64,000 nt of DNA from Candidatus Omnitrophota bacterium (GCA_016928875.1 JAFGJY010000089.1:3625-67624), one strand, 5' to 3'. Shown: positions 9,711 through 34,346, counted from the first letter of the stretch. Made by a program: numbers and translations. Notes: generated by a model not told the origin, from the letters alone.

Positions 9711-10364
9711 TCATGCACGAGCAGAACTGAATGTATCATCACCGAAATGATATTTCTTCATGTGGAATATGATATGCCTCTTGCCGAAAAAGAATATCCT
9801 CATCCATAATTCTAATTTCTTAGCATTCAATTTCCTCAATACTTTAAGTGCTGGCCCGTTAAACACATCAACAGCGCTATACAAGAATGTCCTTCCTTCC
9901 TGTACCAATCGCATATAACATTCATATCTCAGATAAGGAGCGAAACCATATCCCCTGTATTTTGCAAATGTATAAGAATCATATAAATATGCCTCATTAT
10001 CATTTAATTTAAAACCGCATCCGGAAAGGTAGCATTTTTTATAATCGATCCAAATGAACGACGCAATTTCGCCGTTACATCGAAGAGCAAGGCATTTTTG
10101 CCCCTCATGGAGCCGTTCGATCAATTTTTCGGTCTTTACTTTTCTGAACGGCAGATCAGCGATCATACGCATATCATCCATTGTTAAACAATCGATCGAT
10201 ACGTGCCCACTCTCATACGTATGCTGCAATGATGCTCCTTCTTGAAAACGCTCTTCTACAATATAGATCGGCGATATCGATACACCGATCTTAGAAATCA
10301 CGTCACGTACAAGCCGTAATAAAGGGCTGTATTTGAATTTATTCCATATATTCATTAGATACAT
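9711..10364 (-). CDS. GNAT-family N-acetyltransferase
   Basis: ..AYLYDSYTFAKYRGYGFAPYLRYECYMRLVQEGRTFLYSAV..N.PALKVLRKL matches the GNAT motif A region (R/Q-x-x-G-x-G/A). Confidence 0.5.
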   Translation of the reverse strand: MYLMNIWNKFKYSPLLRLVRDVISKIGVSISPIYIVEERFQEGASLQHTYESGHVSIDCLTMDDMRMIADLPFRKVKTEKLIERLHEGQKCLALRCNGEIASFIWIDYKKCYLSGCGFKLNDNEAYLYDSYTFAKYRGYGFAPYLRYECYMRLVQEGRTFLYSAVDVFNGPALKVLRKLNAKKLELWMRIFFFGKRHIIFHMKKYHFGDDTFSSARA

Positions 10365-11689: not shown

Positions 11690-12781
11690 CTACCTCTTCT
11701 TTCGCAATAGCATTTTCTGAACTATGAGTTTCATGACGACGAAAGACGGCGGTACGCACCGTTCGCAGATAGCGAATGAACGTATCCCTTTTCGAAACTC
11801 TTCCCGTACACGCCGATAGCGTTCACCGTTCCATATGCTTGCAAATGGTTTTTGCAGGCAATTCCCAAGCGACGGAGCGTCTTTATCCCACACAAATACG
11901 GGACATGGCTTTACATTTCCTTTAACATCGATAAAGGCAGAGACCCATGGGAAATGGCACGTGATCCTATTGGGTATAAATTCATCCCGAGCCAACATCT
12001 TGTTATGAAGAGATTTCATGTGACGCATCCAATTATCAATATTCGTCGCAATTCCGTACCAGTCGGCTTTTCTCTTTGTCTCCGTGAGAATATCGGTCAA
12101 TTCTTGAATGCCTATACCGCATAACTCTTTTTTCATATCTTCAACGCTAAAATAATTAAGGTCCTGCACGTATACCATTTTCACATCGAATTCCTTTGCC
12201 AGTTCAATAAAACACGGAAGCTCATAAACATTTTCCTTCTCGAGACAGAAATTGAACCGTATCTCCGGTTTTGTAATGGACCTCTCTTTTTTGAGAGTAT
12301 TAATCAGTTTGATATTATTAATAACAACGTTAAATCTATCACATTGACGCACTTTTTTATAAACATCGGATGATGCCGCATCAAACGATACCTTTATCTG
12401 ATCGATCTCGCTATCGACCAATTTTTCGATAGCGCTCGACGACACCACTAAATTAGTCGGAAAATTAACGACACTACCCCGTTCAACGCAATATCGGATC
12501 ATTGTAAATATATCCGGGTTCAGCAAGGGCTCCCCGAGACCGCTCAAATTTATATTACGTGGCCGTATCTGATCATAGATCTTAACAAAATCATCAAATT
12601 TCATATGTAACGGTGTTTGCACAATAGACCGCCTGCCGCACGCAAGACAATTGAGGTTACAATAAGTCGTCACCTCGACCTGAACATGTTCGGGCATCGC
12701 AAACGCATTTACCGATTTCACTATCGCTTGAAAATAATTAAGACCAGAACGAACAATGTGTTTCATATTACGTATATTCAT
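11690..12781 (-). CDS. Radical SAM enzyme with C-terminal SPASM/twitch-like Cys cluster
   Basis: TTYCNLNCLACG (CxxxCxxC). C-terminus CHFPWVSAFIDVKGNVKPCP...GNC...CERCVPP. Paralogue of 57535..58557. Confidence 0.8.
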   Translation of the reverse strand: MNIRNMKHIVRSGLNYFQAIVKSVNAFAMPEHVQVEVTTYCNLNCLACGRRSIVQTPLHMKFDDFVKIYDQIRPRNINLSGLGEPLLNPDIFTMIRYCVERGSVVNFPTNLVVSSSAIEKLVDSEIDQIKVSFDAASSDVYKKVRQCDRFNVVINNIKLINTLKKERSITKPEIRFNFCLEKENVYELPCFIELAKEFDVKMVYVQDLNYFSVEDMKKELCGIGIQELTDILTETKRKADWYGIATNIDNWMRHMKSLHNKMLARDEFIPNRITCHFPWVSAFIDVKGNVKPCPVFVWDKDAPSLGNCLQKPFASIWNGERYRRVREEFRKGIRSFAICERCVPPSFVVMKLIVQKMLLRKKR

Positions 12782-15312: not shown

Positions 15313-16527
15313 TTAAACTTTTAGAATATTCTTGTAGCACTCTTCATATTTCCGGGCGATCATGCGCCATGAATAGTGCTCACGTATTTTATTTCTTGAA
15401 GCTATGCCCATTGCGCATCGCCTTTCCGGGTCATTCTTAAGTATTCTGATCGCTTGTGCCAACGCCTGATGGTCACCCGGTTCAACTAAAATCCCATTTT
15501 GTTCATCAACAAGGTCAGGAATACCGCCTTCGCGTGCACCGATTATCGGAAGCCCGCATGACATCGCCTCTGCGAACACGATACCAAAGGACTCCGCCAG
15601 AGAAGGTAACACGAATATATCGGCACTATTGTAGAGCGCCGGAAGGTATTTTCGCTCACAATATCCGTAAAACGTGACACGGTCTATGAGTCCTAACTTA
15701 CTGCATAATCTTCGGAGTTCGGCTTCATAATTCCCGAGGCCTGCTATGGTCAATCTAATATTGGGATCATTTAAAACAGATAGCGCACGTAATATGTGTT
15801 GTATCCCCTTTCGCTCAATGAGGCGAGCTACACTGATCAACTGCAGGCTCGAAGTATCCCTCCCCCCGGATGGTCGTGGAGCAAAATGCTCGGTATTGAT
15901 CCCATTCGGGATCACGTCCATTGCCTGTGACGGTGCTGTCTTATGGGCCGTCTCGCGCAAACTCTTACTCAATGCAACTACAGTATCAGCACGACGCCAT
16001 ACCATGCGCGTTATAGGCAGTAATAAGCAGTGCATGAATTGCAACATTTTATTATGGACATCATAGAGTGGGACATCTGACCCACGCAATGATACAACAT
16101 ACGGAACACGTCGATGAAGACCGGGCCATAACGCCAACAATCCTGTCGGAAAACTGAAGAAATAATGGATCACGTCATATTTATTGCTTGCGATCAAGCG
16201 TATAAAAACAAAAAAAGCAAAAAAGACATACGTGACCGCACCGCGAAACCCGCAGTCGTGTATCCCTTTTCGCAGGCTGAACACACGGTAGACGGTAAAA
16301 CCTTCAAGCGCCTCTATTCTCTTCTGCCCTTTTATCCGTGAGGTTATAACATCGACGACATGCCCCATAGCCGCAAGTTCTTTCGCAATATTATACGTTG
16401 CGACTCCCGCACCGCCGCCCACTGGAGGGAATTCATAGTTGAGCATCAGTATTTTCAATGCATTGCGGGGAGACTTGGAATTAAGCCTCTTTTCTAAACC
16501 CTCTATTTCACTCTTTAAATTTTTCAT
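15313..16527 (-). CDS. Glycosyltransferase family 4 (GT-B)
   Basis: N-terminus EFPPVGGGAGV. C-terminus LPSLAESFGIVFAEAMSCGLPIIG (E-x7-E region). Confidence 0.85.
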   Translation of the reverse strand: MKNLKSEIEGLEKRLNSKSPRNALKILMLNYEFPPVGGGAGVATYNIAKELAAMGHVVDVITSRIKGQKRIEALEGFTVYRVFSLRKGIHDCGFRGAVTYVFFAFFVFIRLIASNKYDVIHYFFSFPTGLLALWPGLHRRVPYVVSLRGSDVPLYDVHNKMLQFMHCLLLPITRMVWRRADTVVALSKSLRETAHKTAPSQAMDVIPNGINTEHFAPRPSGGRDTSSLQLISVARLIERKGIQHILRALSVLNDPNIRLTIAGLGNYEAELRRLCSKLGLIDRVTFYGYCERKYLPALYNSADIFVLPSLAESFGIVFAEAMSCGLPIIGAREGGIPDLVDEQNGILVEPGDHQALAQAIRILKNDPERRCAMGIASRNKIREHYSWRMIARKYEECYKNILKV

Positions 16528-18123: not shown

Positions 18124-19017
18124 TTATCGTGTCCTCAATCCTTCAAAAAAACCACGACACTGCGCTGTAATAACACGTGCATGGCCAGTAAGCACCATTT
18201 CACCAATAATATAAAGCCCTTTTAACGGGACCCCTATACAACAACATAATTTTTGGACTATGTTCGTATGCCGTTTTAATAACAATAAATAATTCTTTAT
18301 CTTATTCCGTTCATACGCAGGTTTTGGGTCCCGCCCCATTTTCGTTCCTTTGTGGACAACTACCGCTGTGGGCATATAAAACGTTCTATACCCCATATCA
18401 CGCGCACGCAAGCAAAGATCTGCATCTTCCCATCCATACGGGCTATAACTTTCATCAAAACCGCCTGCTGATTCAAAAAGATCTCTCCGGATGGCTATTG
18501 CAAATCCACCGCACGCGTCTCTATAACATGGCGTATCATGATGCCCTTCATCTTTTTGCCCGCGCCCTATATCATATATTAGACCTGTATAAAAATTGAC
18601 GGATAATCCAACTGAACAAAATATTTTTGTATTCCAATCAACATACGCTTTCGCCGTAATGATGCCTATATCGGATCGGTCTTGAAATACACGCACTACA
18701 TTACTAAAGTATTCGGGAGCCACCTCTACGTCATCATCTAAAAATATCAGGATCTCAGAATCGAAATTTTCTTTTGCGTAACGCCAGCCCATGTTCCGCC
18801 CCTTCGCCACCCCAACATTTTGTTTATTGCGAATAAGTGGGGTGTTTGGATATGTACTCGCGATCGCATCGGCCGACCCATCTGATGAATTATTATCGAC
18901 CACAACGACAGATATATTCGAGCAGTCCGATGCGTATATCGATCTCAAACAAGATAAACAATCATCCTTCTTATTATAATTTAGGGTAACAACTGCGATC
19001 TTCTTATTATTTGTCAT
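18124..19017 (-). CDS. Glycosyltransferase family 2
   Basis: IAVVTLNYNKKDD..VVVDNNSSDGS..LDDDV (GT-A DxD); 4-nt overlap with the upstream gene. Confidence 0.85.
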   Translation of the reverse strand: MTNNKKIAVVTLNYNKKDDCLSCLRSIYASDCSNISVVVVDNNSSDGSADAIASTYPNTPLIRNKQNVGVAKGRNMGWRYAKENFDSEILIFLDDDVEVAPEYFSNVVRVFQDRSDIGIITAKAYVDWNTKIFCSVGLSVNFYTGLIYDIGRGQKDEGHHDTPCYRDACGGFAIAIRRDLFESAGGFDESYSPYGWEDADLCLRARDMGYRTFYMPTAVVVHKGTKMGRDPKPAYERNKIKNYLLLLKRHTNIVQKLCCCIGVPLKGLYIIGEMVLTGHARVITAQCRGFFEGLRTR

Positions 19018-19907
19018 TGTGCTTGCACTTTATTTTGAGATTGCCACGCTGCATACGCATCACGCCATGACGGTGAGAGCATTTCCCGCTCGTGGCCCTT
19101 ATTGACTGCAACACAAAAATGGCCGCATAATGCACATAACTTCTGCATCTCATCATGCATAGGATCATCTTTACCAGGGATCGTATCCCGAGCCAGCCCA
19201 AAGTTGAATATACGGTCTACATTCCCTGCGATCACGCAGTAATAATATCCCCGCGGCGTAAGCCCCATGCCAAGCCCCTGCATGATCCAACACCCATTGC
19301 GGAAATCGCTGTTCTTGTGATCAGGCTCGTCGACCGGCGCAACGCTAAAAACATCAAAATCGCGATCTGCATTAGAAGTCTTAGCGGTATTCTCAACAAG
19401 GACGGTATGCGGAAGGTTCTTTAGCATTTCCCGCGTATGTTCTGTATATCCGTTTGAAATAACTGTAATGCGCATATAAGGCAGATGTGTCTTTTTGTAT
19501 TCTCTTAGCATATCTATTATTTCGCGGAACTGGGGATGCAATGTCGGCTCGCCGCCCAATATCCGAATGCCACTCCATCTGTAGTTTGATCGCACACTTT
19601 CGTTTATTAACTGTTGTATCTGCTCCAGGGAAATGCGTTCATCTGACGGCGCTTTATCGATCGATCGATTACACCCCGCACATTTCAAAGTACACGTGTA
19701 ATTGAGATCGATCTCAAGCAATGTCCTACTACGTGAAAATCGCGGTCCCATGACTCGTGTTACACCATTTGAAACCCGCCACAATTCATATGCCCTAAAC
19801 AATCTGTCTGTATGATTACGCAGCCATACCGGTAGTATTCTGCGACGACGTTCATATCGCCACCACAACGGTGATCTAAAATAATAATACATTTTCGTAA
19901 GATCCAT
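19014..19907 (-). CDS. Radical SAM protein (no SPASM extension recognised)
   Basis: NYTCTLKCAGCN CxxxCxxC, GGEPTLHP glycine-rich SAM motif. Confidence 0.75.
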   Translation of the reverse strand: MDLTKMYYYFRSPLWWRYERRRRILPVWLRNHTDRLFRAYELWRVSNGVTRVMGPRFSRSRTLLEIDLNYTCTLKCAGCNRSIDKAPSDERISLEQIQQLINESVRSNYRWSGIRILGGEPTLHPQFREIIDMLREYKKTHLPYMRITVISNGYTEHTREMLKNLPHTVLVENTAKTSNADRDFDVFSVAPVDEPDHKNSDFRNGCWIMQGLGMGLTPRGYYYCVIAGNVDRIFNFGLARDTIPGKDDPMHDEMQKLCALCGHFCVAVNKGHEREMLSPSWRDAYAAWQSQNKVQAQ

Positions 19908-22421: not shown

Positions 22422-23631
22422 CGCGTATTCTCCTTCTTCCTCGCCGTTTCATAAAATCACTGGCAAAATCATCCCAGGCCCGGATCACCGTAGCGTTCTT
22501 GAACGAGCGTTGCAGCTCCTCATCCCGCAAAACCGACGATATGACGCTGAATCGCACGCTGAATTTCCGCAGCATCTTTACTATGTTAAATACACGTTCG
22601 GGGAGACAGAGCATCTCCTTAGTCGAAAAATGAGCGAGCCGGCGCTTGAGACGCTGCATGAAGGGTTGTTTTGTAGAAAAGAGTTCATGCCCACCCATCC
22701 CGTCTCTGCATTCTGCCAAAACCACCTTTTCCGTAGCAGTACCATAATGGAAAAGCGGCCAAAAGGCACGGTCCATAGCAAGGTTCACAGTACGGTCGCA
22801 TGGGTAGGTATCGATGATAAGCAGATCAACTGCACGCGGCAACTTCACGCTATGATGAGACCGTACATATTTAACCGCCTCTTTGAAACTCGACTCTGGA
22901 TCACCGCAAAAAAGTTCTACGATCTCTCTTTTACTGTTTATGATGACGTTCGCTGATAGATCAAGCCCGACCATCCCCGCGATCTCGTTTATGGTCGCGC
23001 GAAATTCGGTTTCTATCTTTCCCGCGCGCTGCTTACACCCCCGGCATTCATCATGTAATGCCCGGATCGTTTCGTATCCGCACACGCCCGGAGCGACTAT
23101 CTTGTTCCCGCCCGAGAACCCCGCTGCCGGATGCGGTACAACACAGCTTACGCCGATCCTAAGATCAGCCTCATAGACATGTTTGTTGACGCTCACGGGT
23201 ATGCCGTTAGAAGAAATACCCAACTGAACGCAATCATTACGACAGTCATGCGGGATGACCTTAAAACGCTCATGCATCGCCTCCCCGATCTTACTGCGCA
23301 TCATCGTTTCGCTATCAGGCGCATGTGTTCCATGCGATACGACAAAAAAGATGTTCTCATCGCGTATCCCCGTATCATGCAAACACGTCACAATATGCGT
23401 CACGATCACATTGGCCGGCGTCGGACGACTGGAGTCATCCACGATGATGCACGCACTTTTTTTATTACACGCACTCGCCATAACCTTATCGCTGAGACGC
23501 ACGATAATATCTTCGGTCGCTAATCGCTGTTTCGTCAAATTCCCCACGACAGTAACATCCCACGTCTTAGGCAGATCAAGGATTGTAGCAATATCTTTAT
23601 CCGCATCAGAATAAACGTAATTATACTGCAC
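22378..23631 (-). CDS. LarA-like (nickel-pincer-dependent lactate racemase family, DUF2088) protein
   Basis: IIVDDSSRPTP, VVSHGTHAP, and VVPHPAAGFSGGNKIVAPG (conserved Lys in the GGxK context); 417 aa. Confidence 0.7.
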   Translation of the reverse strand: MQYNYVYSDADKDIATILDLPKTWDVTVVGNLTKQRLATEDIIVRLSDKVMASACNKKSACIIVDDSSRPTPANVIVTHIVTCLHDTGIRDENIFFVVSHGTHAPDSETMMRSKIGEAMHERFKVIPHDCRNDCVQLGISSNGIPVSVNKHVYEADLRIGVSCVVPHPAAGFSGGNKIVAPGVCGYETIRALHDECRGCKQRAGKIETEFRATINEIAGMVGLDLSANVIINSKREIVELFCGDPESSFKEAVKYVRSHHSVKLPRAVDLLIIDTYPCDRTVNLAMDRAFWPLFHYGTATEKVVLAECRDGMGGHELFSTKQPFMQRLKRRLAHFSTKEMLCLPERVFNIVKMLRKFSVRFSVISSVLRDEELQRSFKNATVIRAWDDFASDFMKRRGRRRIRVVIVRSAPLVYQGK

Positions 23632-24937
23632 GATTCCTCTCTCTCAATCTCCCATATAATGATGCATAATCTCTTCGCACTTTATTTGTCAATTCATTGG
23701 ACAGATCATGCAATAATGAACGCACCGTGGCTCTGTCAGAATACAACGCATCGATATGAGACATCAACATATCGTAATGGTCCGCGTCAAGACGGGGTAT
23801 CGGCTTTATTGGGTAGTCGAACGACGCAAACATACCATCGATCTTGATCGTTTGCGGTGATATCGGCACCACCGGAGTATGGGCAAGGATCGAAAAGATC
23901 GCTGCATGATACCTATCGGTGACAACCAGATCAAAGTATGCCATTAGATCTTTCATTTCCGGATAATCGTACATTCTCGACAATGTCTTAAAGCGGCATT
24001 TCCCGCTTAATCCCTGTGCTATGTTATTATCATGAGCAATACAAGTACTGAGGACCCAGATCTGTTTCGTATAGCGCTTCCCTACCTCCTCTACCGCGCG
24101 ACTCCATAATTCAAGGTCTTGCGCACGATCGCCACGAATTATGAAAGCAATGTCTCCTTTTTCAACCCCCTCTCGCTCAGCGATGACCGCAACATCTTCA
24201 TGGGGAATATACGGTGCCGCAAAGGCGGAATCGCACGATGCGATGACCTTTTCCTGTGAAATCCCAAGTTCGATAAGCCGCTCCGAAGACCACGGCTCTC
24301 TTGTAACATGCATATCGAATAATGAATACACCGCTTTTATGACATTACGCGCTACAGGATGGCTTACGTCAACCGTCTGATTCAGCGAAATAACAGGTTT
24401 CCCTATTCTCTTAGCCAGATAGCACTCGAAAAGGCCTGTGACCATGTAATGCCGTAATCGATCTGATAGTAGACCTGCACCATTGTAAACAGCAACATCG
24501 GCAGCTTTAACAGCCTCGATAAAACGGCGCGCAAAATGTGCACGAAATACGAGTGGTAAGATCGTCTCGAACAATCCGCGGCTGTATTTCTTGCGGAACA
24601 CGTTCTCAAACGCATTCATAATCGGACTATTAAGTACATATTTGGAATTTAATATTTTCACTATCGCTGTCTCAACTGCGATACGTACGTTACTATAATT
24701 TAGAATGCGATCCGCGAAACGATCAAAAGACTTTAGCACATCCTCGGGTGTCGCCTGTTTCGGCAATACACTGATATTGATGTATGGAAACACCTTCCAG
24801 CCTGCCGAACGGATTTCACCATGCATCTGCTCACGCAGGAGCACCAAAGTTCCTTCTGTGAGTGCGCGGTCGCCGAGATTTATCAGGCTCTGTCGCAATC
24901 CCGTACGATCGCTTAAAATAATATATTTCTTTTTCAT
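23621..24937 (-). CDS. Polysaccharide pyruvyl transferase family protein
   Basis: C-terminal VVTDRYHAAIFSILAHTPVVPI signature (R-x-H-x-x-I) and a Rossmann-like N-terminus. Confidence 0.7.
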   Translation of the reverse strand: MKKKYIILSDRTGLRQSLINLGDRALTEGTLVLLREQMHGEIRSAGWKVFPYINISVLPKQATPEDVLKSFDRFADRILNYSNVRIAVETAIVKILNSKYVLNSPIMNAFENVFRKKYSRGLFETILPLVFRAHFARRFIEAVKAADVAVYNGAGLLSDRLRHYMVTGLFECYLAKRIGKPVISLNQTVDVSHPVARNVIKAVYSLFDMHVTREPWSSERLIELGISQEKVIASCDSAFAAPYIPHEDVAVIAEREGVEKGDIAFIIRGDRAQDLELWSRAVEEVGKRYTKQIWVLSTCIAHDNNIAQGLSGKCRFKTLSRMYDYPEMKDLMAYFDLVVTDRYHAAIFSILAHTPVVPISPQTIKIDGMFASFDYPIKPIPRLDADHYDMLMSHIDALYSDRATVRSLLHDLSNELTNKVRRDYASLYGRLRERNRAV

Positions 24938-24985: not shown

Positions 24986-26071
24986 CTATTCGGCAAGCAA
25001 TTTCTGATAGATATCAATATGCGCGTTCAGAGCGGTATTCATCTCGAAGGTCTTGGCTATCTCTCTTTGTCCTTCATCGCCAAGCCCCCTCCATCTATCG
25101 TTCTCCAAAAGGTAGCGTAGGCCTGCATCAAAATCATCACCAACCGCCCTATACCCATACTTTGAGGCATATTCATTAGGATCAACATAACTCAATAATG
25201 CACATTTATGTGCCAATGCCTCAATAAAAGCATTTGGCAGACCCTCACGTACCGCTGTGTTTACTAGGATCCAACTCTGTGACAAAAGCTCTGAAACCTT
25301 GTCTGAATTAAATTGATCGATAAAACCCAATATTTCCAGGTTTTTTAAATATCTATATTTCCCCACTAAATACCTTTCCCATTTTTTATCCCGCGACGTA
25401 CCTGCCAATAGAAATCTAACATGCGGGAATTTCTCGGCCAATTGCAGAAAAAGCTCAGGTCTCTTCCGTCTATCAAGACGTGCAAGATAGCATACCGTGG
25501 GCGTATTCGCCTTTTTGATCATATTTGGCAATAAAACAGGTGTAGGTAAAAACACCGGGGCCTCTTTTAGTTTATATACACGCATGGATTTTTCGCATAA
25601 ACATTCAGCGGCACAATACAAGCCGTCAAACTTCTGTAACGAACGATCTATAATAAAGTTATTCTCGAATATGCGGTTCAAAAGCACCTGTACTTTGCTC
25701 AGCGAATGGTCTTTATATTCGATATACCAATCTTCACTATCACGGGGATCTCTGAATGTTACGATGTGTTTCTTGCGTGGCCTAGCAATATGCGCCAGAA
25801 CTGAGATTAACGATGGTTCTTCGGAATGATAAATATCAGCATCGATCGTCTTCGCGTATTTAATTACCGCGAGCAGATCGTACGGCTTGAATCCGGAGAC
25901 CTTAATACCATCGAGCTCTTCATATTCATTCTGCCCTACGCGTCGTGGTACGATCGCGTACACATCGATACCGCGCTGAACGAGTTCCCGCCCGATCGTA
26001 CGCGTCGCACGGCCGAATCCGCCATACTTCCCCCATGCAAATATCTCGGTACACAAAAAGCATATTTTCAT
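24986..26071 (-). CDS. Glycosyltransferase family 4; paralogue of 28474..29577
   Basis: MKICFLCTEIFAWGKYGGFGRATRTIGREL.. versus MKVCLICVEIFAWGKMGGFGSATRTIARSL..; C-terminus ..VNTAVREGLPNAFIEALAHKCALLS. Confidence 0.8.
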   Translation of the reverse strand: MKICFLCTEIFAWGKYGGFGRATRTIGRELVQRGIDVYAIVPRRVGQNEYEELDGIKVSGFKPYDLLAVIKYAKTIDADIYHSEEPSLISVLAHIARPRKKHIVTFRDPRDSEDWYIEYKDHSLSKVQVLLNRIFENNFIIDRSLQKFDGLYCAAECLCEKSMRVYKLKEAPVFLPTPVLLPNMIKKANTPTVCYLARLDRRKRPELFLQLAEKFPHVRFLLAGTSRDKKWERYLVGKYRYLKNLEILGFIDQFNSDKVSELLSQSWILVNTAVREGLPNAFIEALAHKCALLSYVDPNEYASKYGYRAVGDDFDAGLRYLLENDRWRGLGDEGQREIAKTFEMNTALNAHIDIYQKLLAE

Positions 26072-26086
26072 ATAGTAATGGTCTTC

Positions 26087-27241
26087 CTATGTAACATGAT
26101 ACTTAATGCGATCGATAAAATCGCTATGTTGTTTAAGAGCTTCGGCACATTTTTGCGCAACATGTGGGGCAGTGTCCCGCACCCATTGTTCCTGTATTTC
26201 TTCACACGTACGTTTAAATCCTGTTATATCAAACCCCTCCATGAGCGTATTCTGATAGCACTGCGTAACACCGAATTCCTTAAGCAAACTATATATTTTA
26301 CTTTGGTCAATGCTCTGCGGCATGAATGGCTCGGTAGCAACGAATGGAATATTGTTCTTAAGACACATGACAGAACAATGGAATCGATCCGTTATACAAA
26401 AACTCAGTTTCTTAAAGAATGCAGCCCATTCATAGGGATCAACGCTGTGCCCTATGTTATAATCAGCAAACCTATTAAACATGTTGAAATTAAGTATGAT
26501 ATACCCCTTATCTCTATAATGTGTTGCGATATTAGCTGAAAACATAGGCTGACCGTATAATAAAAGCCCTAATATTGGTCTATCACCTGCTATCCCATAT
26601 TTACGCAAGATATCATCATCGTATTCGGGATACTCATACATGAACGCCGGATCGGCTATTCTTGAGACAGGGACCTCTTTATCGACCTTCGCTTCAAGCA
26701 TCATTGTCATAGTGATATCATCGCGCACACTGATCAACTTATATGAGCTCAATATTCGTCGTACCTGATCTTTATATTTACGGAAAATAGTAAGGTCTGA
26801 ACGATGGCCTGATATTGCATAAGCGATCTTTATTGCACTAATATCGCTTGCTAACCAATAAATATTCGGAAAGCGAGGGACAAACCACTTTGTCGAAAAA
26901 TCCCACAGCACTTTTGCTACTATAAGGGCATCATATGCACGTGAATGCATCTCACGTATATGTGACTCATATGTGCCGGTTACCGGGAAATTATCGATCA
27001 ACAGATTGTCATACTCAAAGTCAATTATCTTCTTGTATCTTCTCAGATTATAGAACGGTATTTTCATATTAGGCTTCATTGCCCGCAGGATCTCATATCC
27101 ATACCGATGTATAGATAAATGCCTGATGAAACGGACATCATAGTCGGGGGAACATCTTGCAAGCATGCGATTCAAAGCATTATTGAATATGCTCGACCCA
27201 TGATTAGCATCAACGGTCGTAAGTACGCCTATTTTTTTCAT
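26087..27241 (-). CDS. Polysaccharide pyruvyl transferase family protein
   Basis: CITDRFHCSVMCLKNNIPFVA signature; 384 aa. Confidence 0.65.
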   Translation of the reverse strand: MKKIGVLTTVDANHGSSIFNNALNRMLARCSPDYDVRFIRHLSIHRYGYEILRAMKPNMKIPFYNLRRYKKIIDFEYDNLLIDNFPVTGTYESHIREMHSRAYDALIVAKVLWDFSTKWFVPRFPNIYWLASDISAIKIAYAISGHRSDLTIFRKYKDQVRRILSSYKLISVRDDITMTMMLEAKVDKEVPVSRIADPAFMYEYPEYDDDILRKYGIAGDRPILGLLLYGQPMFSANIATHYRDKGYIILNFNMFNRFADYNIGHSVDPYEWAAFFKKLSFCITDRFHCSVMCLKNNIPFVATEPFMPQSIDQSKIYSLLKEFGVTQCYQNTLMEGFDITGFKRTCEEIQEQWVRDTAPHVAQKCAEALKQHSDFIDRIKYHVT

Positions 27242-27258: not shown

Positions 27259-28473
27259 TTATTTTTTAAATAACGACTTCCACAAAAGGCGTGAATATCG
27301 TGCATTGATCAGCCCGGCGGGGAGTTGTTCATAGGTACGCGCATCTGTGCCTGCGCGTGGCTGGAATTTATATATTTCGACAAAATCAAAAGGCATTCTC
27401 TCTATCAACGCCTCGGTAGCTTTAAAATCGGCATCTGTTTCACCGGGGAAACCCACCATTATCTGTGAACGTACCTTAAGATGCGGATACCGTTCCTTCA
27501 ACAGCAAAATAGCATCTACGTATTCTTTTACTCCATGACTTCTTCGCATGCGTGCTAAAACTGAATCGCTGCCTGCTTCGATCGCTGAACAGAGTGTCGT
27601 GATCTTTCCGCTCTTGAGAACATCCAGCAAACCCGGAAGCATCTCAATAAGATACTTTGGATGTAAATTACGCAGCATGATCTCATAATCACCCTCGCGG
27701 CGTATCATTTCACGTAACAGATCCACTAATGTATGCCCTTCGTCTCGCCCGTATGCTCCGACATCCGTCCCGATTAAAAATATCTTTTTGTACCCTTGGC
27801 GCAATCCGTTCTCAAACTCATTGATCACCTTATCGATCGGCTTACTCTGAAGGTGTTTGCGTGATAACTTGACCGCACAAAACGAGCAGCTGCTCATACA
27901 CCCGCTTGATACTTTGATCGGGAAAACTCCCTTTGTATAAACGCCCGTATCACGGTTACCTCTTTTCATGTCAAGTATCTTTTTTATCACTTTTGAAAAT
28001 GTGGTAAACTCCAGCATGAATTCGACAAGATACTCCATTTTTGCCATTATGTTTTTATACGGATCATCTTTATAGAGGTCTGATCTGTCATTTATCCGAT
28101 CGGAATAACGATTAGCAGTGACCCGCGTACAGACTTCCGTCTCTTGTAATAATTCTTTGACATTCGGCAGTAAATCACTTTGATCCGGCAAATATTTTCG
28201 TTCTATAAGCGAACTGTTGATCTTAGGCAAGCACCCCCAAACATAAATTTTTGCATCTTTTTTCTTCAATAAAGCCAGCTCCTTAATAATGCTCATCGAA
28301 TACCTTTCAGCCTCATTCGTAAGCCCGCACGCATTAAACAATATCAGATCAGCCGCCTGGGCATTAGATGCCAGTTCCCATCCTTGCGCATGCATCTGTT
28401 CCTCGACATACGCACAGTCTAAGCGGTTTTCGGGACAACCGTTCGTAAATATATACACTGATCTATTATTCAT
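27259..28473 (-). CDS. MiaB/RimO-like radical SAM protein (methylthiotransferase N-domain + radical SAM core, no TRAM domain)
   Basis: N-domain Cys triad (TNGC.., FNACG, VWGC) with MTTase-like spacing. SSGCMSSCSFCAV is the CxxxCxxC motif. The protein ends shortly after the radical SAM core. Confidence 0.7.
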   Translation of the reverse strand: MNNRSVYIFTNGCPENRLDCAYVEEQMHAQGWELASNAQAADLILFNACGLTNEAERYSMSIIKELALLKKKDAKIYVWGCLPKINSSLIERKYLPDQSDLLPNVKELLQETEVCTRVTANRYSDRINDRSDLYKDDPYKNIMAKMEYLVEFMLEFTTFSKVIKKILDMKRGNRDTGVYTKGVFPIKVSSGCMSSCSFCAVKLSRKHLQSKPIDKVINEFENGLRQGYKKIFLIGTDVGAYGRDEGHTLVDLLREMIRREGDYEIMLRNLHPKYLIEMLPGLLDVLKSGKITTLCSAIEAGSDSVLARMRRSHGVKEYVDAILLLKERYPHLKVRSQIMVGFPGETDADFKATEALIERMPFDFVEIYKFQPRAGTDARTYEQLPAGLINARYSRLLWKSLFKK

Positions 28474-29577
28474 TTAGCCCACCGTTCCAGTGTTCGATCC
28501 TAATAGGTTTTCATAAAGTGTAATATGTTGGGTAATAACTATATCCAAAGACACGTGCTTATTTACAAACTCATATCCGCGTTCTCCGCATACCCTCCAC
28601 CTATCATCGTCTAACAGATAACGTATTCCCGCAGAATAGTCTTCATTATCAACGACTTTTCCGAATCGCGATGTGAAGCCGTCGGGATCCACAGAACTTA
28701 CTATCGCGCACCTATGCGCGGCTGCTTCTTCAAATGAAATAGGTAACGCTTCCTTCGCCGATGTATTTACCATTATCCAACTTTTACTCAATATTTTCGT
28801 AAGCCTATCTGAAGTGAACTGATCGATAAAACCTGTCATTTCGAGATTCGGCACATGCTTGTATTTATTTCTTATCCGCGCATCTACTTCTTTATCCTGT
28901 GCACTGCCGGTAGCAATAAAATTAATATCTGGCATCTTTGCCGCAAGCTGCAGAAACAGTTCCGGCCGTTTGACGCGATCCCATCGTCCGATAAAGCACA
29001 CTGTTGGAGTAGCGGATTTCTGAACGAATTCCGGCACCTCAACCGGATTAGGCATGAATCGAGGCGCACGATCAAGTTTGTATTTTTTATGTGCTTTATT
29101 GATCACGAGATCTGCCGCCGCACACAGTGCGTCTGCCTTTTTTACACATCCGCGTACGATCGGATTGTCCTCAAAAAGTATGTTTGACAGCACCTGTAAT
29201 TTATTGCGTGATGGATGAGTAAGCTCGGTGAGCCAATCGCTCAACACTCTTGTGTCTTGAAATGTGACCACATGCTTTTTCTCAGGCATCGACCGCATCG
29301 CTAAATATGTCGCGAATGATGGCTCTTGCGAATGATATATATCTGCATCACACTCTTTAAAGATCGTACGCGCATAGAATGGATCGTGCCGCGGATAGCT
29401 ATACACCGTAAAATTATCGAGCACCTCGACTTCTTTTTGATCTCGTCGTCGAGGCACCACCACACAAACATCGAGTCCGCGCGTTTTCAGCGAGCGCGCT
29501 ATAGTACGTGTCGCGCTGCCAAAACCACCCATCTTGCCCCACGCGAATATTTCCACACAGATCAAACAAACTTTCAT
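28474..29577 (-). CDS. Glycosyltransferase family 4; paralogue of 24986..26071
   Basis: See the 24986..26071 entry; the two are collinear along their full length. Confidence 0.8.
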   Translation of the reverse strand: MKVCLICVEIFAWGKMGGFGSATRTIARSLKTRGLDVCVVVPRRRDQKEVEVLDNFTVYSYPRHDPFYARTIFKECDADIYHSQEPSFATYLAMRSMPEKKHVVTFQDTRVLSDWLTELTHPSRNKLQVLSNILFEDNPIVRGCVKKADALCAAADLVINKAHKKYKLDRAPRFMPNPVEVPEFVQKSATPTVCFIGRWDRVKRPELFLQLAAKMPDINFIATGSAQDKEVDARIRNKYKHVPNLEMTGFIDQFTSDRLTKILSKSWIMVNTSAKEALPISFEEAAAHRCAIVSSVDPDGFTSRFGKVVDNEDYSAGIRYLLDDDRWRVCGERGYEFVNKHVSLDIVITQHITLYENLLGSNTGTVG

Positions 29578-30545
29578 GGCTTTATCACTCTCTGCTTCGG
29601 TTTATCGATAAGTTCAAGAACTCCGCCAACTAGCGATAAGATCGCGTTTTTGAGTAATATTAAGAATGAGAATGACAGCGCCAATGCCGGCACAATACCG
29701 AACTGCTCCATCATCACCACAAGGCTCGCTTCGCGAACACCTAAATTGCCGATCGAGATAGGCAGCATACCCAAAACTATTACCACAGACCGAATCCATG
29801 CCATGTCACTATATGAAACAGATATTGAAACAGCATGCGCCATAATAAGGAGTACGCCAATGCCGAGAAACTGTCTAACGACCGAATTGCCCAGTATATG
29901 AAGATGCGTTCGCAGGGGCAATTCATGCAACCGGGTAACGATCGTAAAGAGCTTTTCGATCTTCACTCGAATAAAATGCGGCAGAAAGCCGATGTTTGCA
30001 ACAAGCAGCTTGGCAACCCCAAGCATCCTCTCGCTAAAAGCACTGCAATACAGGGCAATGAATATCACACTTATTCCGATCAGTATCCATACTGTGGTAT
30101 AAAGTGCATTGCTGAGCAAATACGGGATCATAAATATGGCCCCAACGATGAAAACACTGCCTAATTCTATAAATCGGTTAAGAACGATGCTGATAAACAA
30201 CTCTGCCGGTCGTTTTATATACTGTTGCATCTTGACCCACTTTACTGCGCCACCGGCTAAATAACCCGGTAAGAACGAGGAATAAAATGTCGTGATAAGA
30301 TTTATTTTCAGGATCGTGACTGTTGGCAAGTCTATGGCAAACGGAAGGTTCAACACCCTGAACTGAAGCGCTGCTAAGTAACAACAAATAAGGTGTAATA
30401 TGAACGCTATACTATAAAGAACAAGGTCAGTCGTTCGTAAGGTTAGCCAAATATCAGCAAAGGGAACTTTGGTGAAAAGATACCATAGCAACCCACCCGA
30501 TATCAGGATCTTGACCACATACGACAGTGCCTTTTTATATTTCAT
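29574..30545 (-). CDS. UPF0104 / lysyl-PG-synthase-TM-region-like 'flippase-like' membrane protein
   Basis: 323 aa, about 8 TM segments. N-terminus KK..VKILISGGLLWYLF..V.F..I; 4-nt overlaps with both flanking GT4 genes. Confidence 0.6.
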   Translation of the reverse strand: MKYKKALSYVVKILISGGLLWYLFTKVPFADIWLTLRTTDLVLYSIAFILHLICCYLAALQFRVLNLPFAIDLPTVTILKINLITTFYSSFLPGYLAGGAVKWVKMQQYIKRPAELFISIVLNRFIELGSVFIVGAIFMIPYLLSNALYTTVWILIGISVIFIALYCSAFSERMLGVAKLLVANIGFLPHFIRVKIEKLFTIVTRLHELPLRTHLHILGNSVVRQFLGIGVLLIMAHAVSISVSYSDMAWIRSVVIVLGMLPISIGNLGVREASLVVMMEQFGIVPALALSFSFLILLKNAILSLVGGVLELIDKPKQRVIKP

Positions 30546-31669
30546 GATTTTCCGTGCTTTTTAGCGCTGTGATAGACTCTTAAATATTTCTCACAAACAA
30601 TATCCCAGCTAAACATCTTCTCTAATCGTTCACGAGCTTTTTTGCCAAGGGCAGTCCGCAATGCATCATCCTCTATCAATTTCACTAAAGCTCTTCTAAT
30701 TTCATCACTGCTCAGCGGTTGGACAAGGAGTGCCGCATCGCCTACAACTTCGGCACAGCCTGTGCCGCGCGTCGTTATTATCGCCATCTCTGCTGACATT
30801 GCTTCCAGGAGAACGATCGGAAAGTTTTCCATTGATGATGTGAAAACAAATATGCTCGACGTTTCGTATAATTCCTTTAATGTGGGGCCCTTATTATCAA
30901 GATGCCCCCAAAACGTAACAGCAACACCGTGTTTTTGTGCAAGGGCTTTGAGATCCTCTAAATATGGTCCATCACCGACAATATTAACTGCATGATCGAT
31001 CGGAAGTGAAGAAAGCGCCCGTATCAAGAACTGCACCCCCTTGCGTTCGAACATTCTGGTAACGACAAGAATGCTTTTTTCTTTCTTCACCTGCGGTGAA
31101 TATTTGTCTATATATATGCCGTTATTAATAACTTCTGTTCTGGCTTTTTTATGATGTGACACTACGAGCGTACGCAATCCGTTACTCGGACACACGATCA
31201 GGTCTACAGAGCGCACTATTATCTGCCATAGCGGATATAAGATCATATGCAGGACCTTAAATCGGTCAGGATTATACCCCGGGACATCAGAACCATGAGT
31301 GGTCACGACAACCGGCACGCGTGTGAGCAACGTCAGCATAAACGATATTATTCCATCCGGATAGATAAAATGCGTGTTAATAATATCATATTTCTTTGTC
31401 TTCATAAGTTTCAGCGCGCATGGAATAGCACACAGCACATACGGTATCATCTCAAACGGCGAACACACCGCTATATTCTTACGTGCCACCATGATCCTAT
31501 GCAATCGCACACCATTGACCGTCTCTTCTTTTTTTAGGCCATGACATCCCATGGTGACTATATCAATACTATGCCCTCGTCGCGTCAATTCTGTTGATAG
31601 ATCGTGCACCACTTTTGCCCCGCCACCGCCTAATGGCGGGAATTCATAGCAAAGTATCAGTATATTCAC
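30542..31669 (-). CDS. Glycosyltransferase family 4
   Basis: MNILILCYEFPPLGGGGAKV; C-terminus ..FTSSMENFPIVLLEAMSAEMAIITT. Confidence 0.85.
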   Translation of the reverse strand: MNILILCYEFPPLGGGGAKVVHDLSTELTRRGHSIDIVTMGCHGLKKEETVNGVRLHRIMVARKNIAVCSPFEMIPYVLCAIPCALKLMKTKKYDIINTHFIYPDGIISFMLTLLTRVPVVVTTHGSDVPGYNPDRFKVLHMILYPLWQIIVRSVDLIVCPSNGLRTLVVSHHKKARTEVINNGIYIDKYSPQVKKEKSILVVTRMFERKGVQFLIRALSSLPIDHAVNIVGDGPYLEDLKALAQKHGVAVTFWGHLDNKGPTLKELYETSSIFVFTSSMENFPIVLLEAMSAEMAIITTRGTGCAEVVGDAALLVQPLSSDEIRRALVKLIEDDALRTALGKKARERLEKMFSWDIVCEKYLRVYHSAKKHGKS

Positions 31670-33189
31670 TATTTATCCCCTGTTTCTTTTTTTAAATGCA
31701 AGACAAGATCATCGTTACATGATGGAAACAGCAATGATATCTTTTGACCAACGACCTCTGTTTGAAACGGGATCGTGCTCCCATCTGAAGGGAAATACCA
31801 ACACGCATCGTAGCTCCCATCCATTAGCTCTTTAAACACAACTGACGCCTGTTGTGGCCCATACGAATACCCGGCTGCACCGTTGGGTGACTCTAAATAA
31901 ATGACCGCCTGATCACGTGATTCAAGCGCATAGGTATGAGTCGCCGGATGCCCAATGACTATGTTCTCTCGAAGCTGCAATGATCCGTAATCACGGATAG
32001 TATCTACAAATTTTTTAAAGTTATAAAAATATCGTTCGGTAATTGTATTGAATCTGTATACCGGGATCACCCATCCGAATATATTGTTTTCATGCCCGAT
32101 CTTTCTAAACCCCGCATCACCAAGACCAAAAATTGTATGTATGTCACGTATAGCAAGGGCATCTGCGTAAGCCCCCGCGCTTTGGACCCCCGCCATGAAC
32201 ATGCGCCACCAGTATTTACGGCCGCGCACCTGATATTCATGCTCTGACGTTATTTCCAAGTTTTTTTCACCCCAGAAATAACATCGCTCTTTTTTTTGAT
32301 AATTCCAATCTATGTTTCTAACAGAAATCGTGGGTTTTTTATACGCTCTGCTTGTATCGCTATGTTCATCGTACCGTCCGAGGTCTTTTACTATAAGATC
32401 GAGCTTATCATACGCCAATGTAAAGCCACCGAGTTTCTGCCCTCCTTCATCATTAAGCGTAAGGAGAACATCGATATTATGCTCTCCTTCCCATGCATTG
32501 ATCTCGTTTACGATCTCCTTGACCCATTCCTGATCAGCACCTGTACCATTCCCGAGTTCATTCATAATATCATAAAAAACATTCCCCAAATCTGCAGTCG
32601 CATCCAGTATCTTGCGCACATACGCCTTTTGATGGGATAATAATGTTGGATTTGACATGGTAACAAACTCCTGTGGCCCCGCATGAAGCGACAGTTCCGG
32701 ATTTACATTGTTGTGCGGATTATAGTAGCACCTATCCCAGTTCTTCTTCCACGTCACCGCTTGCCACATCTGCAAGTGAACGACAATACCATTCTCTTTC
32801 AATAGTAAGCACGCGAGCCGCAGCGCTTCAAAATAACGTTCGTTCATGCGATCAAGATCGAATTTGTCCGGCTGGGTTAGATCACTTTCAAATAAATTGA
32901 ACGCCGCTCCTTCCACGATAAAGTGTGGCGGATAGGAGCGCACATGAGACATACCGTACTTGCGGGCCCACGTGGCCCAGTCACAGACATCGTTCCCGTT
33001 CCCTCGCGGAAGATACGTTAAAATATTTTGGGGACTTGGCCCGTACGCGAAACAGGGCGCACCTTCATAATACAAAAGTGGCCTTCCGGCATCGTTATCT
33101 CTGATCTCGAGACTTTGAGAAAAACATATAGCACCGATCATACAATTAGAAATAAGAAAAGCAACGACCGTTCTACCTAAACGATTCAT
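31669..33189 (-). CDS. Secreted TIM-barrel glycoside-hydrolase-like protein (GH5-like), putative EPS-processing enzyme
   Basis: Start MNRLGRTVVAFLISNCMIGAICFS (signal peptide) at 33189, in an ATGA overlap with the upstream stop. FYDIMNELGNG resembles the GH-A clan NE acid/base motif. Family assignment is tentative. Confidence 0.4.
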   Translation of the reverse strand: MNRLGRTVVAFLISNCMIGAICFSQSLEIRDNDAGRPLLYYEGAPCFAYGPSPQNILTYLPRGNGNDVCDWATWARKYGMSHVRSYPPHFIVEGAAFNLFESDLTQPDKFDLDRMNERYFEALRLACLLLKENGIVVHLQMWQAVTWKKNWDRCYYNPHNNVNPELSLHAGPQEFVTMSNPTLLSHQKAYVRKILDATADLGNVFYDIMNELGNGTGADQEWVKEIVNEINAWEGEHNIDVLLTLNDEGGQKLGGFTLAYDKLDLIVKDLGRYDEHSDTSRAYKKPTISVRNIDWNYQKKERCYFWGEKNLEITSEHEYQVRGRKYWWRMFMAGVQSAGAYADALAIRDIHTIFGLGDAGFRKIGHENNIFGWVIPVYRFNTITERYFYNFKKFVDTIRDYGSLQLRENIVIGHPATHTYALESRDQAVIYLESPNGAAGYSYGPQQASVVFKELMDGSYDACWYFPSDGSTIPFQTEVVGQKISLLFPSCNDDLVLHLKKETGDK

Positions 33190-34346
33190 GACAACTCCTT
33201 TTCTATCGCACCATACAACAAGTGGACTGAGTCCCGAAGACATGCATAAACATGATGTTCTTCAATAAATGCAACGGCATTATGAGTGATGCGCCGTTGC
33301 AGTTCTTTATCCTCGATAAGCGCAAGCATGCCCCGCGAGAACTCTTCCGAACGCGGTTCTGCCAAATAGGCGATATCAGTGGTAACGACTTGTGTATGAG
33401 TGTAGAGATTGGTCGCTAATACCGGAATACCGGAATGAAGATATGTATAGATCTTCATCGGAGTATTGTCTCCATGCACCCTCGATGAGACCAAGATATC
33501 TGCCTGCTGCATATAGCCCTGTACTTGATCTGTCGGTTTGGGGCCCAAGAAAAAAACGCTCTCCTCACACCCCAATGACTGCGCGAGACTTCTGTACTTG
33601 GATATATCATCGGGACGTCCTCCTATGATGACGAGTGCAAGACATCGTTCCTTTCTCGCCAACGCAAAGCTCTGTATCAAGAGGTCTATCCCCTGATAAC
33701 TCTCAAGATTACCAATGTACATGATGATAGGAGCATTTATCGAATGAACGGTCCGTATATCCATCAGGCCGTCATGGGTATCATTATCATGTAAAAGCGA
33801 AATATCTTGCCATAGCGATATCCAACGCGCACCTAGCTTCCGTGCTTCCTGGCCTAAAGCCTTGCATACCGGTGCGACAGCTATCGCTTTTTTTATCGGG
33901 ATAGATTCCAGATAACGAAAGATCCCCTCAAAAGGCCGTAAATATTTATATTTATCTACCAACTGACGTGATAACAATGAATCCATATCATAAACAAATG
34001 GCACCCTGAATAAGGATCCTACGAGCAAAGCGATGAATGAAGCCTCTTCCATCGCGTGTATAATGTCGTATTCATTTCTGCGCATGAGCTTGATCGTCTT
34101 GTAACACAGCAGCATATCACATAAAACTTTTTTCCATGAGAACCCCGGCCTTATATTTGTCAAATATCGTGAATGAAATATCCTGTACAAACGTACATTG
34201 GGATATGACATGTCCAGGCCTTCATGGAATGCAAGCACATCTACAGAATCCCCGCGCTCGCTCATGGCCCTGATCGCCAGATGAGCATCGATGGGAGATC
34301 CTCGCTCCTGGTAAAACGGTTGTGGAAGCAAAAAAAGGATTTTCAT
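33186..34346 (-). CDS. Glycosyltransferase family 4/1 (GT-B)
   Basis: MKILFLLPQPFYQERGSPI..; C-terminus ..VSSRVHGDNTPMKIYTYLHSGIPVLAT. Confidence 0.75.
   Translation of the reverse strand: MKILFLLPQPFYQERGSPIDAHLAIRAMSERGDSVDVLAFHEGLDMSYPNVRLYRIFHSRYLTNIRPGFSWKKVLCDMLLCYKTIKLMRRNEYDIIHAMEEASFIALLVGSLFRVPFVYDMDSLLSRQLVDKYKYLRPFEGIFRYLESIPIKKAIAVAPVCKALGQEARKLGARWISLWQDISLLHDNDTHDGLMDIRTVHSINAPIIMYIGNLESYQGIDLLIQSFALARKERCLALVIIGGRPDDISKYRSLAQSLGCEESVFFLGPKPTDQVQGYMQQADILVSSRVHGDNTPMKIYTYLHSGIPVLATNLYTHTQVVTTDIAYLAEPRSEEFSRGMLALIEDKELQRRITHNAVAFIEEHHVYACLRDSVHLLYGAIEKELS

Follow-up and report, generated by a model that had tools for sequence, protein, structure and literature searches.

The window analysed here, a stretch of 64,000 nucleotides (nt) from Candidatus Omnitrophota bacterium (GCA_016928875.1 JAFGJY010000089.1:3625-67624), contains at positions 27259-28473 of the minus strand a gene for a radical S-adenosylmethionine (SAM) enzyme (P0001, hereafter the target), which is akin to the methylthiotransferases (MTTases) MiaB, RimO, MtaB and e-MtaB and ends without a TRAM domain. 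Sequence comparisons give good support to the view that it is a real member of an uncharacterised variant of the MTTase kind, whose function is predicted only. In the reading that we favour, with a probability of about 0.45, the target modifies a sugar or a lipid-linked glycan intermediate, possibly by methylthiolation. A non-RNA, glycan-type substrate had already been proposed in a previous sequence-only reading of this DNA. The proposal gains from the separate clade in which the target falls, the presence of canonical MiaB and RimO in the same genome, the patchy distribution of the family, the enrichment of glycan genes around its members, a conserved three-gene cassette and a fusion with MurB; it loses from the fact that the association with glycan genes is found in only 24 of 42 loci and that the cassette of a second genome lies beside queA and tgt.

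Architecture and phylogeny of the TRAM-less family

The open reading frame (ORF) of the target encodes 404 amino acids (aa) plus a stop, with no internal stops across the 404 codons, and was characterised by translation, Pfam and NCBIfam searches and an AlphaFold2 (AF2) model. A Pfam scan at E <= 1 identified two domains and no further one: UPF0004, the MTTase N-terminal domain (PF00919, E-value 2e-18; residues 6-92, positions 28198-28458 of the minus strand), and the radical SAM core (PF04055, E-value 1e-19; residues 186-354, 27412-27918, minus strand), to which RimO (4JC0) and MiaB (7MJV) also align. Both Cys signatures claimed in the sequence-only reading are there: the three-Cys pattern of the N-terminal domain appears as FTNGC13PEN, FNAC49GLT and VWGC81LPK, and the radical SAM motif C192xxxC196xxC199 as GC192MSSC196SFC199. 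In the alignment C13, C49 and C81 match up with the auxiliary-cluster Cys residues of MiaB and RimO, and all six residues are invariant in 104 family members at 26-63% identity. A segment scan of the target found no hydrophobic segments. The target is a soluble, intact two-domain enzyme that keeps all Cys residues of both [4Fe-4S] sites.

Between the two domains lies a linker with a family-specific helical insert (residues 93-185, 27919-28197, minus strand), delineated from the alignment, the AF2 model, the conservation profile and superposition. The linker is about 45 aa longer than that of MiaB and RimO, and the insert is found family-wide with a poorly conserved sequence; its helices (138-154, 158-169 and 171-176) are modelled with a predicted local distance difference test score (pLDDT) of 65-87, and it corresponds to the about 65 model residues that remain unaligned to MiaB, RimO and MtaB. 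The C-terminal 50 residues (27262-27411, minus strand) complete the barrel and, as judged from NCBIfam alignments, the AF2 model (pLDDT 92.2, predicted TM-score 0.91) and superposition, end in a helix (386-401) without a TRAM beta-barrel, about 12 residues past R392, the last arginine conserved in the family.

That the protein ends without TRAM had been read from the sequence, with a domain scan proposed as a check, and cryptic, split and nearby-encoded versions of TRAM were all looked for and none was found. A genome-wide scan with both TRAM models (PF01938 and PF18693) gave zero matches in the target or on the window's contig; the TRAM model matches in the window's genome are confined to other contigs, and those to TRAM_2 are RimO only. 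The NCBIfam MTTase models all stop aligning at positions about 347-355 of 416-432, the same point where TRAM would begin. The downstream gene is already a pyruvyl transferase from its own residue 13, so that a split TRAM has no place there. A cryptic or split TRAM is therefore ruled out by the Pfam, NCBIfam and genome-wide TRAM scans, the AF2 model and the superposition.

The AF2 model was compared with solved structures using VIA-align (Foldseek gave an identical ranking), which reported the integrative model of MtaB as the best match (9a6d: Z 33.0, root-mean-square deviation 2.1 over 335 residues, chain 1-367 of 451), followed by MiaB (7mjw: Z 31.6, chain 17-388 of 441) and RimO (4jc0: Z 31.4, chain 2-362 of 424). 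In all three cases both shared domains are covered and the superposition halts at the TRAM start. MtaB differs from the target by the TRAM past chain residue 367 and by falling in a separate clade, and MiaB (PDB 7MJV-7MJZ), which shares the two-cluster architecture and the fold (Z 30-32), likewise has TRAM. RimO (4JC0), the top sequence match among solved structures (E-value 2e-35), has a TRAM domain too and is acidic, with an isoelectric point (pI) of about 5.7 compared to 8.8 for the target and a median of 9.2 for the family; this comparison does not discriminate between RNA and other anionic substrates. The next-best folds are class-B (B12-binding) radical SAM enzymes such as MgmA (9ccb) and AprD4 (6fd2), with Z 21-24, some of which act on sugars. 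They share with the target the Rossmann-like N-domain and the radical SAM barrel, but their N-domain binds B12, while that of the target carries the three-Cys cluster site of MTTases. A class-B assignment was rejected: PF02310 gave no match at E <= 1, and class-B NCBIfam models cover only the radical SAM part with scores far below cut-off.

None of the NCBIfam models for known MTTases was reached. The general model TIGR00089 came closest (242.4 bits, cut-off 251), and among equivalog-level models the top match was e-MtaB (TIGR01578: 208 bits, cut-off 314.7), ahead of MtaB (TIGR01579: 187 bits, cut-off 357), MiaB (TIGR01574: 170 bits, cut-off 355) and RimO (TIGR01125: 167 bits, cut-off 357). 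The MTTase subgroup in SFLD is defined by a three-domain architecture and comprises four families (10.1101/717249). Measured against the features used in SFLD and TIGR00089, the target has the three-Cys UPF0004 domain and the CxxxCxxC motif and is devoid of TRAM.

Searching 5.8 billion proteins with the target gave more than 5,000 matches. The best 120 all consist of UPF0004 and Radical_SAM only (36-62% identity over full coverage, about 390-480 aa), and their sources include Omnitrophota, Helarchaeota, Eisenbacteria, KSB1 and Dehalococcoidia, among others; two database matches, P0002 and P0003, are 61-62% identical to the target. An exhaustive HMMER search of 50%-identity representatives yielded 1,337 clusters at E <= 1e-30, with nearly all of the top 150 having about 400 aa, and ESM Atlas clusters concur on this architecture. 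The hallmark motifs of the clade are TNGCPENRID, FNACGLT, GCLPKIN, IKVSTGC..C.FCAVKLSRG and GTDVGAYGRD. As in its other members, the target combines these motifs with the inter-domain insert, a C-terminus about 12 aa past R392 and the corresponding placement in the tree.

The phylogeny was calculated with IQ-TREE under LG+C20 with posterior mean site frequencies, with TRAM columns excluded by a fill filter, and with NCBIfam-labelled canonical enzymes from the window's genome and five other carrier genomes as the reference set. All 47 TRAM-less rows (47/47) form one clade with a Shimodaira-Hasegawa-like approximate likelihood ratio (SH-aLRT) support of 100, sister to e-MtaB (96), and MiaB (99), RimO (98) and MtaB (100) are separate clades outside it. 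By these sequence comparisons the target belongs to a large, old TRAM-less sister clade of e-MtaB. Such a tree had been suggested together with the sequence-only reading, for which membership in a tRNA-modifying clade would have been damaging; the target falls outside the MiaB, MtaB, RimO and e-MtaB clades. What has to be revised is the notion of a local "loss of TRAM", because the TRAM-less state is ancestral to a large and old family (clade SH-aLRT 100). The sister, e-MtaB (the CDKAL1-type tRNA ms2t6A methylthiotransferase), resembles the target in UPF0004, the radical SAM domain and the six Cys residues. It is universal, in contrast to the target, which is accessory and glycan-linked, lacks TRAM and has the helical insert of about 45 aa.

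A collection in which each of 185,579 species is represented by a single genome contains relatives in 395 stretches. Within the window's phylum, 200 genomes were surveyed without finding a close ortholog (best match 27% identity, 159 bits), and a metagenome scan for close orthologs gave two distant loci only. The nearest ortholog (62%) is encoded in a metagenome-assembled genome (MAG) labelled Desulfobacteraceae (locus L007), which fits lateral movement.

The window's genome encodes a second TRAM-less paralog of 420 aa (L004:496-1758, minus strand, contig C36 of G000; TIGR00089 125 bits), which adjoins a gene for a B12-binding radical SAM protein (L004:1798-3018, minus strand) and is placed within the TRAM-less clade at the end of a very long branch, with two of the three auxiliary Cys residues lost (GN and GV for GC). 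That the target could similarly be a paralog that is decaying or has lost its function and catalyses nothing, for which this lack of two auxiliary-cluster Cys residues in the same genome might be a precedent, is very hard to reconcile with an intact, translationally coupled ORF that has all invariant family residues and a confident fold and is 62% conserved together with its neighbours in another lineage; we give this explanation next to no weight.

Genomic context and the conserved cassette

The window's genome, a 78%-complete MAG of 1.73 Mb that comes from a sediment metagenome, codes for MiaB (467 bits) and RimO (503 bits), both full-length and with their TRAM regions included. The target is thus an accessory gene on top of housekeeping MiaB and RimO. 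The same coexistence is seen elsewhere: MiaB, MtaB, RimO and TRAM-less members are found together in a Syntrophales MAG, in Desulfosediminicola flagellatus and in Syntrophus buswellii.

In the window the target is packed tightly between a GT4 glycosyltransferase (GT) gene and a pyruvyl transferase gene, just as the sequence-only reading had described it. Upstream, with a 0-nt gap, it abuts a divergent GT4 (28474-29577, minus strand), which in turn overlaps by 4 nt with a gene for a flippase-like membrane protein of the UPF0104/LPG_synthase_TM type with about 9 hydrophobic segments (29574-30545, minus strand). The order of UPF0104 (67% identity), GT4 (77%) and target (62%) is kept in the Desulfobacteraceae MAG, where the other surrounding genes are unrelated. 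As the cassette is kept while everything else differs, the three genes represent a portable unit, and the target is tied to a glycosyltransferase and a flippase-like membrane protein. An NCBIfam scan of the two cassette partners gave no match above cut-off. In the Desulfobacteraceae MAG the cassette is flanked upstream by queA and tgt and downstream by a convergent gene for a GT-C protein with PMT_2 and TPR domains (flanks L007:5661-7939, plus strand, and L007:11303-13234, minus strand).

The survey of genomic contexts that had been suggested as a check of the sequence-only reading agreed with it in part: glycan genes are enriched near the homologs (12.9%, compared to 1.0% around canonical MTTases), but the association is not universal (24/42 loci). 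Pfam families were tallied for two genes on either side of each homolog. The 113 ORFs around the 35 closest loci yielded 140 families, led by Glycos_transf_1 (5), DegT (4) and Epimerase (4); at 40 loci that are more distant, Radical_SAM (15/115) came first, followed by Glycos_transf_1 (13) and GT2 (4). In addition, marker hidden Markov models were seeded from the window for GT4, GT2, GT-C, Wzx, Wzy, epimerase, hexapeptide transferase, AsnB and UPF0104. These markers make up 94/921 (10.2%) of all genes in family loci and 48/372 (12.9%) of those at most 3 positions from a homolog, and 24/42 of the loci with at least 12 genes contain two or more of them. The baseline in the window's genome minus the window contig is 4.1%, with at least two markers in about 10% of random 18-gene windows; within ±10 kb of ten canonical MTTases of the same five genomes only 2/198 genes (1.0%) are markers, and 0/10 of these regions contain two or more. 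Fisher tests gave p = 1e-7 and 1e-3, which are overstated, as related loci are not independent. The glycan association of the family is real but partial.

Independently of these loci, the metagenomic protein P0223 (1,245 aa) consists of a full-length MurB, whose residues 14-295 match S. aureus MurB (1hsk) with an E-value of 3e-31, followed by two tandem TRAM-less modules that are 48% identical to each other and both fall inside the TRAM-less clade (support 100). MurB, UDP-N-acetylenolpyruvoylglucosamine reductase (UDP, uridine diphosphate), acts on a UDP-sugar with a carboxylate substituent at C3. The fusion is thus one independent pointer to substrates of the nucleotide-sugar type.

The composition of the cassette also brings to mind a membrane lipid or glycolipid as the substrate, in which case the three genes would be a self-contained glycolipid module and the enzyme would act on an acyl or isoprenoid chain or on the head-group. 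This would suit the cassette of the Desulfobacteraceae MAG, which stands alone outside any large glycan locus and faces the GT-C/PMT_2 gene, as well as the polytopic membrane proteins that recur beside Pirellulales members; radical SAM enzymes with Rossmann-like N-domains are, moreover, known as lipid modifiers (review: PMC13459092). The top NCBIfam match of the cassette GT4 is a glycosyltransferase for the glycolipid anchor of lipoteichoic acid, but with 30 bits against a cut-off of 460 it lies far below threshold. Since the target has no hydrophobic segment and, in the window, GT4s and pyruvyl transferases of a polysaccharide operon of the Wzx/Wzy type surround the cassette, we regard a lipid substrate as unlikely.

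Substrate and chemistry

That the substrate is neither tRNA, rRNA nor S12 we consider very probable, and that it is an intermediate of a glycan pathway somewhat better than an even bet. The likeliest candidate would be the sugar added by the co-conserved, translationally coupled GT4, on a nucleotide or polyprenyl-phosphate carrier. Modification would take place on the cytoplasmic side, with the UPF0104 flippase-like protein moving the sugar outward afterwards, and the variable inter-domain helical insert may replace TRAM as the element of substrate specificity. By analogy with the known MTTases, methylthiolation is conceivable as the chemistry, though we would hold it only tentatively, and the combination of a glycan-pathway substrate with methylthiolation appears doubtful. 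MTTases work by methylation of an auxiliary-cluster sulfide, H abstraction by 5'-deoxyadenosyl and capture of -SCH3 by the substrate (PMC10702137). In the target a first SAM would accordingly methylate a sulfide on the auxiliary cluster, and a second SAM would be cleaved at the radical SAM cluster to give a 5'-deoxyadenosyl radical, which would abstract H from a C-H of the sugar or of its substituent; the carbon radical would then capture the methylthio group to form a C-SCH3 decoration. The best mechanistic precedent is RimO, whose substrate, alone among those known for the family, is not RNA and is attacked at an sp3 C-H; RimO shows that such bonds are within reach of the family.

Several observations weigh against the glycan reading or its chemical part. 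Among the 42 well-sampled loci 18 have fewer than two glycan markers, and the Pirellulales, Syntrophus and Desulfosediminicola loci have none at all. The MurB fusion is represented by one cluster only, and the branch that carries the P0223 modules is long. In S. buswellii (G003, C1:1207078-1212020) a TRAM-less member lies about 1.2 kb from the canonical MtaB, and in the Desulfobacteraceae MAG the tRNA-modification genes queA and tgt immediately precede the cassette and run in the same direction. The queA-tgt pair is a common housekeeping pair, and for this reason, and with the membrane protein and the GT lying between it and the target, its adjacency is weak counter-evidence. With the basic pI (family median 9.2, target 8.8), charge is no argument against RNA, and other chemistries would also suit an intact auxiliary cluster. 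No methylthio-sugar is known to be made by a radical SAM enzyme, and the methylthioxylose of mycobacterial lipoarabinomannan derives from methylthioadenosine. Our own search of the literature revealed no characterised TRAM-less MTTase and no methylthio glycan made by a radical SAM enzyme; a paper on the capsular polysaccharide of Riemerella was discarded as a lead, as rimO is only the boundary of the locus there.

Some of these observations would be expected if the target were an MTTase for tRNA, rRNA or protein that needs no TRAM, whether it acts by itself or with a partner: queA and tgt directly upstream of the second cassette, the Syntrophus member near MtaB and the basic pI, to which may be added that MiaB contacts tRNA through all three of its domains and not TRAM alone (PMC10702137). 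On the other hand, the TRAM-less enzymes form a clade of their own with a very patchy distribution, and complete canonical sets are already present; the glycan genes enriched around them show no such enrichment around canonical MTTases, and the partners in the cassette are a membrane protein and a glycosyltransferase. In view of this an RNA or ribosomal-protein substrate seems improbable to us.

A stronger competitor shares the substrate of the favoured reading and differs in the chemistry. The target could act on a glycan or nucleotide-sugar intermediate by thiolating it or closing a C-S ring with no methyl group transferred, the auxiliary cluster being a sacrificial or relay donor of sulfur. 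Alternatively, the cluster would only conduct electrons in a redox-neutral or oxidative step of the sort seen in other radical SAM sugar enzymes, for instance epimerisation, dehydrogenation, dehydration or C-C bond formation. The structural neighbours that rank after the MTTases include the sugar-acting diol dehydratase AprD4 (Z 21.4) along with further class-B enzymes, and radical SAM genes are common neighbours (15/115), both of which agree with such a role. Against it stand the strict conservation of the MTTase-wide motifs and of the three-Cys site throughout the clade and the fact that, in sequence as in fold, the closest relatives are without exception true methylthiotransferases. We rate it as fairly unlikely on the present evidence, yet ahead of a lipid or an RNA substrate.

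If the favoured reading holds, including methylthiolation, the product would be a nucleotide- or polyprenyl-linked repeat unit with C-SCH3 on its sugar or on a substituent of that sugar, such as pyruvyl, and the methylthio-decorated exopolysaccharide would arise by a route unrelated to that of the methylthioadenosine-derived methylthioxylose of mycobacteria. It could be a new kind of sulfur-containing sugar decoration, and the target would be the first radical SAM methylthiotransferase acting on a carbohydrate, a claim that we put forward with considerable reserve. By extension, the TRAM-less clade (more than 1,000 clusters at 50% identity) could consist of enzymes for C-H thiolation of small molecules or glycans. 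The only MTTase substrates known in a 2023 study are tRNA and S12 (PMC10702137), and a glycan substrate would be a third class beyond tRNA adenosines and S12. This would matter for enzymatic C-H thiolation as well as for the cell-surface chemistry of sediment bacteria and archaea that are uncultured, and the compact three-gene cassette offers a directly testable unit for heterologous expression.

Other genes of the window and of related loci

The operon of the target is co-directional and tightly packed, with gaps from -58 to +48 nt, and lies inside a glycan locus of more than 50 kb with many GT4 and GT2 genes, Wzx, Wzy, two GT-C, two UPF0104 and two pyruvyl transferase genes, as well as a sulfotransferase, a LarA-like gene, AsnB, FkbH and two radical SAM genes besides the target. 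The polysaccharide pyruvyl transferase that follows the target 17 nt downstream (PS_pyruv_trans; 26087-27241, minus strand) belongs to the same operon and is outside the conserved cassette. The cassette GT4 has a paralog at 24986-26071 (minus strand; 47% identity over 361 aa), but the two pyruvyl transferases (23621-24937 and 26087-27241) show no similarity to each other in BLAST, so that a duplicated module is true of the GT4s only. An ORF of a length equal to that of the target (15313-16527) was considered as a possible paralog and turned out to be an unrelated GT4. Another operon ORF of 524 aa (31669-33243, minus strand) has no Pfam or NCBIfam family and only a sub-threshold match to DUF6298.

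Among the related loci, those from Pirellulales (L009:2939-3862, L012:2364-3302 and L013:3796-4722, plus strand) encode, just upstream of the homolog and co-directional with it, a membrane protein about 310 aa long that has 7-8 hydrophobic segments; downstream there are large convergent proteins of the Laminin_G_3 type (about 1,100-1,190 aa), and no glycosyltransferase markers are present. Searches of PDB sequences with these Pirellulales neighbours gave no matches. In Bacteroidales MAGs (L067, L070 and L074) the family member, with the match at about position 10001, comes at the end of four consecutive genes, all in one direction and each encoding about 410-440 aa, and these runs are likely arrays of radical SAM enzymes, given the many radical SAM neighbours in the tally for this group. 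In S. buswellii and the loci L098, L102 and L115, the TRAM-less member about 1.2 kb from the canonical MtaB is also near a further radical SAM gene, an arrangement that is repeated in a Syntrophus sp. MAG (L032). In the window itself the additional radical SAM genes are located at 11690-12781 and 19014-19907 (both minus strand) and are of the SPASM/twitch and the small Fer4_12 type, respectively, which brings the total for the locus to three.

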